Virus record (IMG/VR): IMGVR_UViG_2541047595_000015
DNA length: 35,633 bases
Strand: one strand, 5' to 3'
DNA from: a virus
Taxonomy: Duplodnaviria; Heunggongvirae; Uroviricota; Caudoviricetes
In this document: one piece after another, positions 1 to 35,633 of the stretch
Numbering within the stretch: position 1 is the stretch's first letter
Layout of the letters: every line of letters starts with the position of its first letter
Notes under the pieces: generated by a model
Told to the model about the DNA's origin: nothing
What the model saw: the letters and a program-made list of their open reading frames with translations, nothing else
Databases searched by the model: none
Position numbers and translations under genes: made by a program

Positions 1-1110
1 TCCGGTAAAATAAGGCAACCGATCTGCTGCAGTGGCAAGTCCTGCCAGAGCAGTGAGCGTGGCATCTGCCGGTTGTTTTCCGTTTGCCAGATCGTATGCA
101 GCCTTGACCGCTTTCGGTGTGGCGGCCAGTATTTCAGACGTGCTGTTGATGGCACTGCTCAATTGTATGGTGCCTTTTGCCGTCAGCGAGGCAGCAGGCA
201 CTCCCGTTATCTGACTCCACGGGTGAGTGTGGCTGACGGGCGCCTTGCCGGCTGCAAGGTCGTATGCAGCCTTGACCGCCTTCGGCGTGGCAGCCTCAGT
301 TTCTGATTGACTGTCCGTGGCGCTGCTCAGTTGTACGGTGCCTTTTGCCGTCAGCGAGGCAGCAGGCACTCCCGTTATCTGACTCCACGGGTGAGTGTGG
401 CTGACGGGGGCCTTGCCGGCAGCCAGGTCATATGCAGCCTTGACGGCCTTTGGTGTGGCGGCCAGCGTTTCAGAGGTGCTGTTGGTGGCACTGCTCAGTT
501 GTACGATCCCTTTACGGGTCGTTGTTGCATCCTGGGCTGTGTATTTTCCCCGGGCCAGATCATACGCGATTTTCACAGCCTTCGGCGTGGCAGCCTCAGT
601 TTCTGATTGACTGTCCGTGGCGCTGCTCAGTTGTACGGTGCCTTTTGCCGTCAGCGAGGCAGCAGGCACTCCCGTTATCTGACTCCACGGGTGAGTGTGG
701 CTGACGGGGGCCTTGCCGGCAGCCAGGTCATATGCAGCCTTGACGGCCTTTGGTGTGGCGGCCAGCGTTTCAGAGGTGCTGTTGGTGGCACTGCTCAGTT
801 GTACGATCCCTTTACGGGTCGTTGTTGCATCCTGGGCTGTGTATTTTCCCCGGGCCAGATCATACGCGATTTTCACAGCCTTCGGCGTTTCAGCCTCAGT
901 TTCTGATTGACTGTCCGTGGCACTGCTCAGCTGTACGGTGCCTTTTGCCGTCAGCGAGGCAGCAGGCACTCCCGTTATCTGACTCCACGGGTGAGTGTGA
1001 CTGACGGGTGCCTTGCCGGCTGCAAGGTCGTATGCAGCCTTGACGGCTTTTGGTGTGGCGGCCAGCGTTTCAGAGGTGCTGTTGGTGGCACTGCTCAGTT
1101 GGGTGAACCC
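1..1110. repeat. Tandem ~300-bp repeats (two ~150-bp half-units each) inside the tail-fibre gene
   Basis: Units 307-606 and 607-906 are identical except 2 nt on direct comparison; 907-~1110 and 1-306 are diverged or partial copies. Plus-strand ORF-track entries 307..606 and 607..906 give identical 99-aa antisense translations, an artefact of the repeat. Confidence 0.85.
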
Positions 1111-1329
1111 CTTAGCTGTCAGTGTCGCGTCCGGGTGGTTACGGGAACGTACGTGTTCAGCCAGTGACTGTGCGGCTTCCTCCGTTTTTTTCTTCAGCCA
1201 TTTCGTCCTGTTTGCCAGTTGCCGGGGGGCTCGATTTGATATCCCGTCAGCACCACCCAGAACCGGATCTGATGTCTCCAGTTGATAGATTTTTTCTTCC
1301 CACTTTTCTGTTTCATTCAGGTTTCCCAT
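1..1329 (-). CDS. Tail fibre protein (5' end at 1329, 3' end beyond window start)
   Basis: Minus-strand ATG at 1329 lies 2 nt after the upstream gene stop. Manual translation starts MGNLNETEKWEEKIYQLETSDPVLGG and continues into repeated ...TAKGFTQLSSATNSTSETLAATPKAVKAAYDLA... and ...TTRKGIVQLSSATNSTSETLAATPKAVK... units, which I recognise as the tail-fibre repeat of P2 H / lambda Stf-type fibres. No stop before position 1. The ORF track misses it because it has no in-window stop. Confidence 0.75.
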   Translation of the reverse strand, partial: MGNLNETEKWEEKIYQLETSDPVLGGADGISNRAPRQLANRTKWLKKKTEEAAQSLAEHVRSRNHPDATLTAKGFTQLSSATNSTSETLAATPKAVKAAYDLAAGKAPVSHTHPWSQITGVPAASLTAKGTVQLSSATDSQSETEAETPKAVKIAYDLARGKYTAQDATTTRKGIVQLSSATNSTSETLAATPKAVKAAYDLAAGKAPVSHTHPWSQITGVPAASLTAKGTVQLSSATDSQSETEAATPKAVKIAYDLARGKYTAQDATTTRKGIVQLSSATNSTSETLAATPKAVKAAYDLAAGKAPVSHTHPWSQITGVPAASLTAKGTVQLSSATDSQSETEAATPKAVKAAYDLAAGKAPVSHTHPWSQITGVPAASLTAKGTIQLSSAINSTSEILAATPKAVKAAYDLANGKQPADATLTALAGLATAADRLPYFTG

Positions 1330-1331
1330 AA

Positions 1332-1922
1332 TCAACTGCTCCCGTGGTTATAACTGCCATCATGGATGGCGGTATTGTTATAGCGAATGGCCACAGACTG
1401 ATACTCCAGGCTGGCCAGATGGCAGCGGGCCGGTGCAAATGCAGCGAGCGTCTGACGCAGCATCGCGGCCTGATCGTTAGTAATGGGCTGTTTCAGAATA
1501 ACGCGATAAACCGCCCAGGCGGCTGCATCTCCATGAACAAACAGTCCGTTATAGCTGCGATTGCCGTCGTAACTGAGACGACCTGTGCCTTCAATCAGAT
1601 CCACTTCACCAAAGCCAAAACGGCGGATAACTTCCCGGATTGACCACGGCGTCCCTTTATACCGGTGTAGTTCGATGGCTGCTTTTATAAGCATGCGGCG
1701 AACATCGTCCGATTCCGCCAGCTCCCAGCCATCGCCAGACAGTGAGAACTGCTCGCCCAGCCATGGCAGCGCAGAACTGTCGACGATATCGACGAGAAAG
1801 ACCATCAGTACGCTCAGGTCGATGTTATCCAGCCGCCCTGCCAGTCTTCCCAGCGTCCTGAGACTGATATCACCCTCAAGCGGTGGCGGGAGTTGTAATG
1901 GCTCAGTCATCAGACACTCCAC
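1332..1922 (-). CDS. Baseplate/tail protein I (P2 gpI-like)
   Basis: 196 aa; sits between the J-like and tail-fibre genes in P2 order (V-W-J-I-H); sequence resembles the tail protein I family. Confidence 0.7.
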   Translation of the reverse strand: MECLMTEPLQLPPPLEGDISLRTLGRLAGRLDNIDLSVLMVFLVDIVDSSALPWLGEQFSLSGDGWELAESDDVRRMLIKAAIELHRYKGTPWSIREVIRRFGFGEVDLIEGTGRLSYDGNRSYNGLFVHGDAAAWAVYRVILKQPITNDQAAMLRQTLAAFAPARCHLASLEYQSVAIRYNNTAIHDGSYNHGSS

Positions 1923-5367: not shown

Positions 5368-6248
5368 ACACTCCTCGTCAGTATTCTGGCGGCCATTGCA
5401 CTTAATCCCGGAGACATGCGGTTGAATGCTGTTCCGACGGCGTTAAGCTGCCCGGAAACGGTATCCAGAGCACCTGCAATATTTCTTTTGTCCACACCAC
5501 TCAGCGCAGACTGTGCCTGCTGTACATACGTGGCTGCTTCGCTGGCTGTTCTGGCCAGACTGATGGCATCGGGCATGGATTCAGAGAGTGCGTTAAACGC
5601 CGGAACACTTTTCCCCAGAGCCCCGGAGATATTACCCAGTCCGCTCATCAGCCCCGGCACACGGGTCAGTGCGACAACGGGGTTATCCTTCATTTTCTGT
5701 GTCACTCGAACGGCGCTGATAGTGGTCTGGAGTACAGACTGCGCCTGTTTCGCATAGTTGACGCCGTTGCGGATGAACTGCGCCACCCCGGAAGGTGAAG
5801 GAATGGCACCGGAGACCGCCCCGACACCCGGGAGCTTCGTGCGTATTGCCGGTGGTTGCAGAGGATTTTTCGGGTCACCGGTGTATTCCCGGAGAGACAC
5901 GGTGGCACTGACAGCCAGCACGTTGCCGGTACTGTCAGTCTGCTCGCTGGTTGCAGTCACATCGGTAATCACGAACCAGCCGCGATAGTCACCGTTGCCG
6001 AAGACCAGCGCCAGTGCCTGATGGGCTTTCATGGCTGTTCGCAGTCTCGCCAGCTCCACATCGGGTACACAATAATGCTGATGGAAAACCAGAGTTATCT
6101 GGATTTCGTCCAGCCTGTCGCCGACGAACTGCAGGCCAGGCTTACCCCCGATGCGGGCATGCTCCGCATAATCGACGCCGAACGTGGCCTCGAAGCCGTC
6201 CCAGTAGGTAATCAGCTCAAACTCAATATCACCCAGTACGGCAAACAT
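5364..6248 (-). CDS. Tail protein, gpU-like / DNA-circularisation-like
   Basis: 294 aa; directly downstream of the tape measure gene as in P2 (T-U-D); the N-terminus resembles tail protein U. Assignment is positional plus weak similarity. Confidence 0.5.
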   Translation of the reverse strand: MFAVLGDIEFELITYWDGFEATFGVDYAEHARIGGKPGLQFVGDRLDEIQITLVFHQHYCVPDVELARLRTAMKAHQALALVFGNGDYRGWFVITDVTATSEQTDSTGNVLAVSATVSLREYTGDPKNPLQPPAIRTKLPGVGAVSGAIPSPSGVAQFIRNGVNYAKQAQSVLQTTISAVRVTQKMKDNPVVALTRVPGLMSGLGNISGALGKSVPAFNALSESMPDAISLARTASEAATYVQQAQSALSGVDKRNIAGALDTVSGQLNAVGTAFNRMSPGLSAMAARILTRSV

Positions 6249-9200
6249 CAGCGGTACTCCTTACGTTGTTTCTGAGCCAGCAGACGCTCCAGCATTTTTT
6301 CCAGCTCATGCAGACTCATATTCAGGGCACCAGTCAGTCCTGCAGGCGCTGTGGTTTCCCTGCCATTGAGGAAAAACTGAGGATTAAAGCTGACCTGGAT
6401 ACCACCAGACGTTCCACCGCCGGTTGCAGCTGCACCACGGCCTGAATATCCGGCAGCCAGGATTTCAGGCGAGGGGATACGGGGAACATCCGGTGTCATC
6501 TCATTTGCCAGACGTTGCCCTGGTAAAATCGATGCCCGGGTGGAGAGCGGAATAACGGGCATGGAAGACAAACTATTGATTACGGCTCCGATCGCATTTT
6601 TAGCAGACGACATAAACCCATTGATATCGGGCAACGGCATACTGAAGCGAACACCTGAAGTGTTATCCCGTATTTCTGGCCCCTGAATGCTCACGGGCAT
6701 TCTGGGGAGCAGTTCACTGGCCATTCGCTGCCCGGCCAGAGCTGCAAGCGGAGTGGTCCGCTGCAGGCCAATGGCGGCCCCCTGCGCGATATTGTCACCA
6801 AAGCCCATAAACACGCGGCTCGGCGAATGAATGCCCAGCTTTTCGCTGAACCAGCCACTGATGCTGTCACCCATTCCGGTTACACTGGATTTGAGCGACT
6901 CCCATTTGTTTTTGATACCGTTAATCAGACCGTCGACAAGATGGCCACCGAAGTCGGTGAACTTTGCCGGCAGATCAACACCAAGATATTTCAGCGCAGC
7001 TGCAAAGGCTTTATAGAGCAGACCTGCCGGCGACCAGTTAATCAGCAGCTTACCAGTTCCCGCGATACCGCCGTTAAAGGCTTCCTGAATGTCAGCCCAG
7101 CACTGTTTAAACCAGCTACTGATGCTGTCACCCATTCCGGTTACACTGGATTTGAGCGACCCCCATTTGTTTTTGATACCGTTAATCAGACCGTCGATAA
7201 GATGGCCACCGAAGTCGGTGAACTTTGCCGGCAGAGCAACGCCGAAATATTTCAGCGCAGCCGCAAAGGCTTTATAGAGCAGGCCTGCCGGCGACCAGTT
7301 AATCAGCAACTTACCAATTCCCACAATTCCGCCGTTAAAGGCTTCCTGAATGTCAGCCCAGCGCTGTTTAAACCAGCTACTGATGCTGTCACCCATTCCG
7401 GTTACACTGGATTTGAGCGACCCCCATTTGCTTTTGATACCGTTAATCAGACCGTCGATAAGATGGCCACCGAAGTCGGTGAACTTTGCCGGCAGAGCAA
7501 CGCCGAAATATTTCAGCGCAGCCGCAAAGGCTTTATAGAGCAGGCCTGCCGGCGACCAGTTAATCAGCAACTTACCAATTCCCACAATGCCGCCGTTAAA
7601 GGCTTCCTGAATGTCAGCCCAGCGCTGTTTAAACCAACCACTGACAGCCCCCCAGTTGCGGTAGATAAGGTAAGCTGCTGTCGCGACAGCGGTGATAACG
7701 AGACCGATGGGATTCATCATCAGCGCTCGCCCAATCCAGAGAACGGCACGTGCAGCGCTCATAAAACCGCGAACGAGGCTGCCCGCCAGAACTTTGCTGA
7801 GTTTCAGTCCTCCGCTGGTCAGTCGGCTGAATCCAGTGACAAGCCAGCGTAATTTGCCACCTTCTCCGAGTGCGGTAGTCAGTCGATGCCAGTTGGTCCG
7901 GAGTAAAACAGTAGTTTTCCAGACGTTCACAAAGGGGGAAATAAGGAGATTCAGCCCCAGTTTGAGACCAATAGTCGCTATCTTAATCGCAAGGAGCGCA
8001 CTGATGAGCTTAAAAGCCCCACTGACAAATTGCGGGTGAGTCGCTACCCAGTGTTTTGTCCCCTGAATGAGTGGGAGCAGTTCCTGAGTCAGAGAAATAA
8101 AAGATGGAGCTAATTGATCGCCCAGCGTAATTGCCAGATCGCGACTGCTGACCATAAGTGTTTTAGTGGCTTCAAGGGGAGATTTCAGCCGCTGATCATA
8201 AGCACTGGCAAGCAAATCGTTATCCGCAGCCCTGAGAGCACCGGCACGGATCTCTCGATATCTGTCCATGTTGGCCAGCATCGGGCGGATAAATGCCATG
8301 ACCTGCATATCCGCGAACATATCGCCCAGACCAAAGTTTTTCGCCAGAGCCTGAAGTGCCTCATCTCTTGCCGTATCATTCTTTATTTTCATGGCTGATT
8401 TGAAGCCGGCCAGCGCTTCGGGGCTTTTGGCATTGAGGTAACGTTCTATAACACTCAACATCCCTTCAATCGGAGAGATCCCCGCAGCTTTATAACTCGC
8501 AATAGATCCCTGCAAATCAATACCCAGATCAGCAAACTGTTTCTGAGTATCGCGGGCAAAAATTTTGGTAAGAAAGTTTTTAAAATTATTGGCTGCTTCG
8601 TCGGTGGAACCTGCACCGATTTTTGCTATCTGGAGACTGGCCCCGATTTCAGCAACAGCCTCTTTTCCACTGGCAAGACCCGCCATCATTGGGGCCAGGG
8701 ACTGCATCCACTTGACCTGATCCGGGATTTCAAATGACCCCTGGTCACCGGCATAAGCCATAATATTCTGAACGGCACCAAAATCTCTGGCCGCACCTTT
8801 CAGGGAGTTTTGCCAGACTGCGGCCACTTTTGCCCAGTCCTGAGCAGACGTGCGTGTTGCCGTTGCCGCGCGGGCAATATCCGGCATCAGAAAACCGATA
8901 TCTGACACATTATCAATATTGTCGCTGATGAGTGAACCCACCGCCTCCTGCAGCTCATCCTGATACTGATTGTATTTAAGCGCCCAGCCTTTTATCTGTC
9001 CGGCAAGTGCATCCCGCGTTTTATTGTCATATTTTGCGGTGATCGACATATCAATCATTTTGTCCTGAAAAGACATGGACTGCTGAACGGCAGGGGAAAC
9101 CGTATGATAAACAGTCTGTGCCATGCCATACGCTTCAATCCCCTGACCATACAGCGCCATGCGGTTAGCTTTCAGCGCATCACTGGTAGCGGATGCCGCT

Positions 9201-9460
9201 GACAGACGGCGCTGCTGGCGCTCAATTTGCTCCATGGTGCGGCTTACCCGCAGCAGCTCGCTGTTGAGATGCTGCATCCGGGAAGAACCCAGTTGACCAT
9301 AACGTTCTGTTGCACGGGTTAAAGCGTTCTGACGTTCCTGCAGGCGGCGTGAGGTATCGCTCAGGGAATCAAGCGCACGGCGGGTACCGCTCATTGCAGA
9401 ACGGAATGTGCTGCCAATCATCCCGCCGATAACAACGCCGACTGAAAACTGTCCCGACAT
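6248..9460 (-). CDS. Tail tape measure protein
   Basis: 1070 aa; largest gene of the tail module, after the chaperone pair; GGAGG 10 nt upstream of the ATG at 9460; contains three tandem 87-aa repeats. Confidence 0.85.
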   Translation of the reverse strand: MSGQFSVGVVIGGMIGSTFRSAMSGTRRALDSLSDTSRRLQERQNALTRATERYGQLGSSRMQHLNSELLRVSRTMEQIERQQRRLSAASATSDALKANRMALYGQGIEAYGMAQTVYHTVSPAVQQSMSFQDKMIDMSITAKYDNKTRDALAGQIKGWALKYNQYQDELQEAVGSLISDNIDNVSDIGFLMPDIARAATATRTSAQDWAKVAAVWQNSLKGAARDFGAVQNIMAYAGDQGSFEIPDQVKWMQSLAPMMAGLASGKEAVAEIGASLQIAKIGAGSTDEAANNFKNFLTKIFARDTQKQFADLGIDLQGSIASYKAAGISPIEGMLSVIERYLNAKSPEALAGFKSAMKIKNDTARDEALQALAKNFGLGDMFADMQVMAFIRPMLANMDRYREIRAGALRAADNDLLASAYDQRLKSPLEATKTLMVSSRDLAITLGDQLAPSFISLTQELLPLIQGTKHWVATHPQFVSGAFKLISALLAIKIATIGLKLGLNLLISPFVNVWKTTVLLRTNWHRLTTALGEGGKLRWLVTGFSRLTSGGLKLSKVLAGSLVRGFMSAARAVLWIGRALMMNPIGLVITAVATAAYLIYRNWGAVSGWFKQRWADIQEAFNGGIVGIGKLLINWSPAGLLYKAFAAALKYFGVALPAKFTDFGGHLIDGLINGIKSKWGSLKSSVTGMGDSISSWFKQRWADIQEAFNGGIVGIGKLLINWSPAGLLYKAFAAALKYFGVALPAKFTDFGGHLIDGLINGIKNKWGSLKSSVTGMGDSISSWFKQCWADIQEAFNGGIAGTGKLLINWSPAGLLYKAFAAALKYLGVDLPAKFTDFGGHLVDGLINGIKNKWESLKSSVTGMGDSISGWFSEKLGIHSPSRVFMGFGDNIAQGAAIGLQRTTPLAALAGQRMASELLPRMPVSIQGPEIRDNTSGVRFSMPLPDINGFMSSAKNAIGAVINSLSSMPVIPLSTRASILPGQRLANEMTPDVPRIPSPEILAAGYSGRGAAATGGGTSGGIQVSFNPQFFLNGRETTAPAGLTGALNMSLHELEKMLERLLAQKQRKEYR
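6850..7636. repeat. Three tandem ~261-bp repeats inside the tape measure gene
   Basis: The segment WFKQRWADIQEAFNGGIVGIGKLLINWSPAGLLYKAFAAALKYFGVALPAKFTDFGGHLIDGLINGIK.KWGSLKSSVTGMGDSIS occurs three times in the TMP. Antisense plus-strand ORFs at 6831, 7089 and 7350 are spaced 258-261 nt apart with near-identical translations. Confidence 0.85.

Positions 9461-34439: not shown

Positions 34440-35633
<1,194 letters not shown>

Follow-up and report, generated by a model that had tools for sequence, protein, structure and literature searches.

Evidence for recent module duplication in the tail-fibre gene of a BcepMu-like Escherichia coli prophage, and an allelic series of repeat arrays among its relatives

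The window analysed here is a stretch of 35,633 nucleotides from a virus of the Caudoviricetes (IMG/VR record IMGVR_UViG_2541047595_000015), and it opens inside a tail-fibre gene that contains two adjacent, nearly identical units of 300 bp. We consider it very probable that the fibre has three parts, namely a 68-aa anchor, a shaft of Phage_fiber_2 modules, and a collar with a receptor-binding tip beyond the window, and that the near-identical units arose by a recent in-frame tandem duplication of one pair of modules (B+A) through unequal recombination. Among relatives, the same anchor carries at least 16 different arrays, with 3 to 9 repeats.

The N-terminal 443 codons of the tail-fibre gene occupy nucleotides 1–1329 on the minus strand; translation places the ATG at 1329-1327 and leaves the open reading frame open at the left end of the window. 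This end is also a contig end, the window starting at position 1 of the draft contig CAPK01000022.1 (GCA_000333175.1). Locus L013 shows 0 mismatches to the window across 5,329 bp. In relatives the complete fibre has a length of 630–643 aa. The gene had been called a tail-fibre gene in a preliminary description made from the sequence, and this assignment holds: the 443 residues match PF03406 (Phage_fiber_2) in seven stretches (425.7 bits, E = 9.4e-131, against a curated cut-off of 22 bits), the gene comes after P2-type baseplate genes J and I, and matching genomes label it 'tail fiber protein'. There is also a weak match to PF12789 on the HTHPWSQITGVP linkers. Repeated 99-aa open reading frames on the plus strand across the array were rejected as antisense artefacts, the coding strand being the minus strand, and an Rfam scan of the window gave no match.

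Comparison with relatives defines a non-repetitive N-terminal anchor of 68 residues (aa 1–68; 1126–1329, minus strand), with 99–100% identity in nearly all length variants and 96% at the lowest. Directly upstream of the fibre gene is a P2 gpI-type baseplate wedge gene (1332–1922, minus strand; Pfam Tail_P2_I, E = 1.3e-24). In phage Mu the N-terminus of gp49 docks onto the gp48 wedge protein (PMC11915804) and, by homology, the anchor presumably docks on the gpI-type wedge protein. At the other end of the shaft, past an LPYFTG motif, full-length relatives contain a collar domain (PF07484) followed by a tip like those of T4 gp37 and gp12. AlphaFold2 modelling of a whole 630-aa fibre, as a monomer and from a single sequence, gave a mean pLDDT of 34.

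The shaft consists of seven modules of two kinds in the order A-B-A-B-A-A-A(terminal). Type A modules have 56 aa, comprising the repeat core and the linker APVSHTHPWSQITGVPAA (an HTHPWSQITGVP linker), and type B modules have 44 aa, comprising the core and a KYTAQDA linker. The earlier description had proposed repeat units of about 50 aa. Repeat units are indeed encoded, at another size, since each 300-bp unit specifies one 44-aa B and one 56-aa A module. All modules lie on the minus strand. From the N-terminal side, A1 (958–1125; aa 69–124) differs from both A2 and A3 at 16/168 nt and is followed by B1 (826–957; aa 125–168), which bears the private Ala-to-Glu substitution (GG to TT at 889-890). 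A2 (658–825) is the same as A3 at 168/168 nt. B2 (526–657) is a chimaera, with A4-type bases at its 5' markers (columns 27 and 36) and a B-type 3' part, and would mark the site of the unequal crossover. A3 (358–525), with 0/168 differences, would be the duplicate of A2, and A4 (190–357) is a hybrid whose first ~80 nt equal those of B2 and whose 3' half is A-type. The terminal module A5 (22–189) is diverged (60–65/168 nt different) and leads to the LPYFTG motif at the window edge.

Tandem Repeats Finder revealed a 300-bp-period array at 278–1101, without strand, with 2.7 copies, 98% matches and no indels, and a second, more diverged array at 85–513 with a period of 168 bp and 85% matches. Exact repetition extends over at most 311 bp (278–588 = 578–888), which is far beyond chance. 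That the two 300-bp units differ at 2 positions, as first noted, was borne out by this program and by direct comparison of 307–606 with 607–906: the only differences are two adjacent ones, with GG at 589/590 and TT at 889/890. On the coding strand the change at 889/890 turns GCC into GAA (Ala to Glu), and the Glu variant is also found in assemblies P0046 and P0047. B1 and B2 differ at 4/132 nt, two of which are this private change. Eight synonymous and four non-synonymous codon differences separate A1 from A2; since the older units differ mostly at synonymous codons, the modules are under constraint at the protein level. The unit sizes of 132, 168 and 300 bp are all multiples of 3, and the frame is kept in every allele examined. 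A contingency locus, in which a slippage-prone short repeat shifts the frame as an on/off switch, was considered and rejected, all unit sizes of the array being in frame.

As the array stands at a contig end, its copy number deserves scrutiny. The preliminary description had warned that such repeats invite assembly errors; this applies in general, as draft assemblies do end at the array, but not to the window, for which there is an independent and identical contig of 5.23 Mb. This contig (GCA_900449635.1; locus L012) has the same insertion in prpR and 0 mismatches to the window over 5,329 bp, a stretch that covers both the array and the private GG-to-TT change, and its size implies long reads. 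Furthermore, when positions 1–1400 of the window were compared with complete E. coli genomes, the best 30 records each gave one ungapped match at 99.8–99.9% identity, and 49 complete-genome records reached at least 99%. Mis-assembly of short reads at the contig end, by expansion or collapse to a copy number other than the true one, would fit a window whose first letter, within the fibre gene, is also the first of a draft contig. It would also fit the frequency with which draft assemblies stop in or just past the array, leaving partial proteins of 435–513 aa, the fragments of 91–97 aa (up to 126 member sequences) among draft proteins, and the coincidence of the tape-measure repeat of the related phage PhiKM with a sequencing gap. 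Many draft contigs break at the start of the array, and a protein search with the 72-aa anchor alone returned only short partial proteins (91–97 aa). With the same array and GG-to-TT change in an independent 5.23-Mb contig, and the same architecture in at least 30 complete genomes, each through a single ungapped 1,400-bp match, mis-assembly is extremely improbable. The independent assembly agrees with the window in copy number; the array is no assembly artefact and its copy number is trustworthy.

In the 5.23-Mb contig the fibre gene has a premature stop at about codon 571 (L012:5680–5716), arising from a 1-nt deletion in a GGGG run near the tip. The fibre P0047 (643 aa), from an assembly with the same Glu variant, is intact, and the deletion is probably a long-read homopolymer error and not true decay.

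The arrays of relatives were read from translations of their genes. Among proteins (t, terminal repeat) we found ABABAAt, the type of the window, together with ABABABAAt, ABABABAt, ABABAAAAt, ABAAAAt, ABABBAt, ABAABAt, AAAAAAt, AAAAAAAt, AAAAAt and others. Loci from complete genomes add AAt (L005, L008 and PhiKM), ABAAt (L003, L006), ABABAt (L004) and AAAAt (L007). Alleles with 0, 1, 2 and 3 B+A units correspond to proteins of 443, 530–543, 630–643 and 730–743 aa, respectively. A comparison of repeat number among related prophages, as suggested at the outset, thus yields no one fixed value. Within close lineages the array is stable (among the genomes listed, at 99.8–99.9% identity). The span of a BLAST match was rejected as a proxy for copy number, since the same span is obtained from different arrays (AAAAt in L007, AAt in L008). 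In the closest relatives, for instance L001, the two 300-bp units are 100% identical, from which it follows that the GG-to-TT change is younger than the duplication. The prophage family is widespread, with matches in about 635–684 of 5,426 complete E. coli genomes, ST131 included.

The annotation of these genes is uneven. In E. coli R3 (NZ_CP107184.1; L005:2898–4229), which has an AAt allele, RefSeq/PGAP gives four pseudogene fragments, and the open reading frame from the conserved ATG is intact at 443 aa. Many ST131 genomes likewise show the pattern 'tail fiber protein x2/x3', and it appears that the repeat array confuses the annotation pipeline. In protein clusters P0026, P0028, P0034, P0041, P0048, P0060 and others, several database sources label the fibre 'short-chain fatty acid transporter', and one source 'putative prophage endo-N-neuraminidase'; both are evidently propagated misannotations.

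The mosaic structure of the modules suggests how the window's allele could have arisen. The likely ancestor is an A-B-A-A-terminal allele, which is still extant in relatives. In such an allele A4 would supply the homology partner: its first ~80 nt nearly match the beginning of B, which lies exactly 300 bp upstream. A misaligned homologous exchange between B and A4 would then produce a chimaeric B (A4 sequence at the 5' side, B sequence at the 3' side) and a perfect second A2, the predicted product from ABAAt being A1-B-A2-[A4 5'/B 3']-A2-A4. The window fits this product: A2 and A3 are identical (0/168 nt), B2 differs from B1, private change aside, exactly at the two A4-type marker bases in columns 27 and 36, and the first ~80 nt are identical between A4 and B2. 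The same process in other registers and between other pairs of units would repeatedly add and remove modules, giving fibres of 3–9 modules on one anchor. As for the enzymology, we infer homologous recombination of the RecA type and not template switching during replication.

Other lineages appear to have expanded in a different register. The nine-module allele L011 has three identical B units of the B1 type, and each of its internal A units joins a 5' part from A2 to a 3' part from A1. L002 has the ABABAAt array of the window at 2.2% divergence, with an A2/A1 chimaera as unit 3 and two identical B units. On these mosaics, L011 and L002 would have expanded via A2 x A1 exchanges and, since the mosaic of L002 differs from that of the window, the ABABAAt architecture would have arisen at least twice. 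Derivation of the window's allele from the nine-module allele by loss of one unit was rejected, given that the L011 mosaic differs (all B units B1-type, A units chimaeric). The A-only arrays contain a 336-bp super-repeat of two units. In every expanded allele examined there are pairs of units 0–3 nt apart, and there are none in AAt and ABAAt. B+A units are 0–5 nt apart within one genome, compared with 11–16 nt at the same position in diverged lineages. Read together, these comparisons show recurrent and recent gain of modules by recombination between units; loss probably occurs by the same route, and gene conversion likely contributes. The recent expansion and ongoing recombination proposed in the preliminary description are upheld by the 0–3 B+A copies of relatives, by the crossover at marker bases and by a second lineage with another crossover, and its mention of gene conversion or recombination by the greater similarity of units within a genome than of same-position units between genomes.

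That last observation would also be expected if the A-B-A-B arrangement were ancient, its near-identity maintained by continuing gene conversion (concerted evolution), and the shorter alleles were deletions. In L002 and L004 derived substitutions are common to each one's own units, and 300-bp direct repeats offer an easy mechanism for deletion. The direction of change cannot be proved from the extant alleles, and the lone B carried by ABAAt alleles (L003 and L006; markers A27 and T36) does not have the marker combination expected of a simple ancestor of B1, so that some polymorphism or conversion must be assumed. This single B is, however, not a deletion hybrid of B1 and B2 either. One B x A4 exchange accounts exactly for the chimaeric B2 together with the perfect identity of A2 and A3, the separate mosaic of L002 (A2 at 5', A1 at 3') within the same architecture fits a separate duplication better than common ancestry, and near-identical pairs occur in all expanded alleles and in no minimal one. 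An ancient array kept uniform by conversion is for these reasons unlikely as the main explanation. Concerted evolution and recent duplication do not exclude each other, and some conversion is probable too. The duplication itself might have come about without RecA, by replication slippage or template switching between the ~80-nt homologous tracts instead of unequal crossing-over. E. coli can form tandem duplications and deletions without RecA where direct repeats are separated by a few hundred bp, and the tracts in play here are short (~53–80 nt of near-identity). Against this, the existing 300-bp identical units are ample substrate for RecA-dependent exchange, and the sequence holds nothing that separates slippage from crossing-over, the difference being one of enzymology only. 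We hold slippage to be a possible but somewhat doubtful route, and unequal recombination remains our preferred reading.

Gene content, varied insertion sites and the classification of PhiKM identify the element as a BcepMu-like transposable E. coli prophage whose tail is of the P2 type. Upstream of the fibre gene, on the same strand, are P2 gpI-, baseplate J-, W-, V-, D- and X-like genes, followed by a GpU-type tail gene and those for the tape measure, tube and sheath. Matches to Portal_Mu, a DDE (rve) transposase and a MuB-like AAA_22 ATPase were found further along the window, and PhiKM, an isolated phage related to the prophage, is classified under Bcepmuvirus. The insertion site differs in every relative genome examined (gcd, ssuB, php, aroA, dinG, otsB and others), in keeping with a transposable phage. 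The prophage of the window interrupts prpR. The first 353 residues of PrpR are encoded at 34572–35633, with a stop right at the phage end (~34,570), and a C-terminal piece of 154 aa is found past the invertase at the far prophage end (L012:8333–8797). The record of PhiKM (PQ738613.1) shows a sequencing gap exactly at the tape-measure repeat (L023:3435–3761), and its fibre gene is annotated as truncated (319 aa) and stands beside early genes, which suggests that the record is mis-joined or rearranged.

Beyond the window, the fibre gene of full-length relatives is followed by a tail-fibre assembly (Caudo_TAP) gene. In L001, where position 1 of the window corresponds to L001:6001, the region to its left (L001:3100–5920) contains a Gin-type serine recombinase, two to three silent C-terminal cassettes and the assembly gene. 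The recombinase of relatives matches Resolvase and HTH_7. Inverted repeats of 226–229 nt join fibre codons ~471–546 to two silent C-terminal cassettes in relatives, and both orientations of the tip cassettes, in varying number, occur among genomes. The relatives thus have, outside the window, the serine recombinase, cassettes and inverted repeats of an invertible fibre of the Mu/P1 type; the window's contig stops 83 bp short of the first inverted-repeat arm. For ST131 prophages of the same kind, tip switches have been reported in a preprint (10.1101/2022.05.07.487787). On this arrangement the array belongs to the part of the gene that stays constant, and receptor specificity falls to the invertible tips. 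The earlier suggestion of variation in fibre length and host range is accordingly supported at the sequence level for length (proteins of 415–743 aa) and not directly for host range, the array lying in the constant part of the gene.

The same prophage contains a second in-frame tandem repeat. The tape-measure open reading frame (6248–9460, minus strand) has a repeat of 261 bp (87 aa) at 6849–7644, with 3.0 copies and 96% matches, of which units 2 and 3 differ at 2/261 nt. Relatives have 1, 2 or 3 copies, corresponding to gene lengths of 2691, 2952 and 3213 bp. The length of the tape measure is, as experimentally established, proportional to that of the tail, and copy number here should change tail length. 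In E. coli SK1402 (L014:1–1245) the tape-measure gene is immediately preceded by ISCro1, an element of the IS66 family, which has removed or displaced the 5' end of the gene. The gene has 2,913 bp, not 3,213 bp, despite 3 repeat copies, and this prophage copy is probably defective.

That the number of fibre modules sets the physical length of the fibre we infer from the sequence. Module number might further be adaptive: a selected, rapidly adjustable setting of reach, and not neutral churn, that matches the fibre to the thickness of the host O-antigen or capsule and is possibly co-adjusted with tail length via the tape-measure repeat. The 1–3 copies of the 261-bp repeat in relatives are in line with this, as are fibre-length haplotypes that track the killing spectrum in Pseudomonas tailocins (bioRxiv 10.1101/2023.04.17.536465). 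Module number and tape-measure copies show a weak association (Spearman rho 0.53–0.54, nominal p 0.02–0.04, n = 15–17 loci) in a sample that was chosen by fibre architecture, is not phylogenetically independent and is uncontrolled. Strict coupling of the two was rejected, as L027 combines an 8-module fibre with 2 tape-measure copies, and an identical 667-aa fibre occurs with 2 and with 3 copies (L024, L025). Coupling is unproven, and we regard adaptive tuning of reach as quite improbable. If true, it would place two recombination-driven rulers, one for the tail and one for the fibre, beside an invertase-driven tip switch.

Among the closest known systems is the tail fibre S of phage Mu (gp49; PDB 5YVQ, 8JU3, 9KI1), which likewise belongs to a transposable myophage and has an N-terminal baseplate anchor. 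Its residues ~113–149, KKGLVQLTSATDSPSETLAATAKAVKIAMDNA, contain the same repeat motif as the window's fibre. The G-segment/Gin system of Mu is also comparable, its N-terminal part being invariant and its C-terminal tips exchanged through a serine invertase that adjoins the assembly gene. In contrast, Mu S has one matched stretch where the window's fibre has seven repeats and relatives have 3–9, and, unlike in Mu, the genes for tail and baseplate are of the P2 kind (gpI, J, W, V, D, X, U). Length polymorphism of Mu S was not found in the literature examined. Stowed Mu fibres lie along the sheath (PMC11915804), and by homology those of the prophage would do so too.

The same repeat family occurs in other PF03406 fibres, namely lambdoid side tail fibres, P1-type S proteins and the fibres of EHEC prophages, where PF03406 is a standard building block (PMC3368898). 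Plasmid-borne P1-like fibres share the 44/56-aa alternation, in 8–11 units, with an unrelated N-terminus. Shuffling of such fibre motifs among unrelated phages was reportedly described by Haggard-Ljungquist et al. in 1992 and by Sandmeier in 1994. These descriptions concern motifs common to different phages, whereas the allelic series seen here is graded and stays inside a single prophage family and on a single conserved anchor, with readable junctions.

Among other length-variable proteins, tape-measure ruler repeats resemble the fibre array as long in-frame tandem repeats in a structural gene whose copy number varies among close relatives; unlike in the tape measure, the link between module number and length in the fibre is drawn from sequence. 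The streptococcal alpha C and M proteins have near-identical in-frame repeats, hundreds of bp long, whose number changes through homologous recombination, and with it the length of an extended structure on the cell surface. They are unrelated proteins, cellular and not of the virion, and the analogy is one of mechanism only. In Pseudomonas tailocins, discrete length classes of the fibre gene within one population correlate with the target spectrum (bioRxiv 10.1101/2023.04.17.536465); these fibres belong to another family, and their length classes are not known to differ in the copy number of a tandem unit.

Repeat-rich, mosaic tail fibres and Phage_fiber_2 have long been known, and the window is an instance of a familiar process and not a new kind of system. 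Literature searches for copy-number variation of PF03406-type repeats in tail fibres returned nothing specific. What is particular here is a graded allelic series with readable crossover junctions in one widespread family, for which we found no describing paper. In practice, drafts often break at the array and annotation mishandles these genes, intact short alleles being called pseudogene fragments. The series could serve the engineering of fibres or tailocins of graded length, and, as a natural set of 3–9 modules on one anchor, it could be used to test whether fibre length bears on adsorption through O-antigen and capsule layers.
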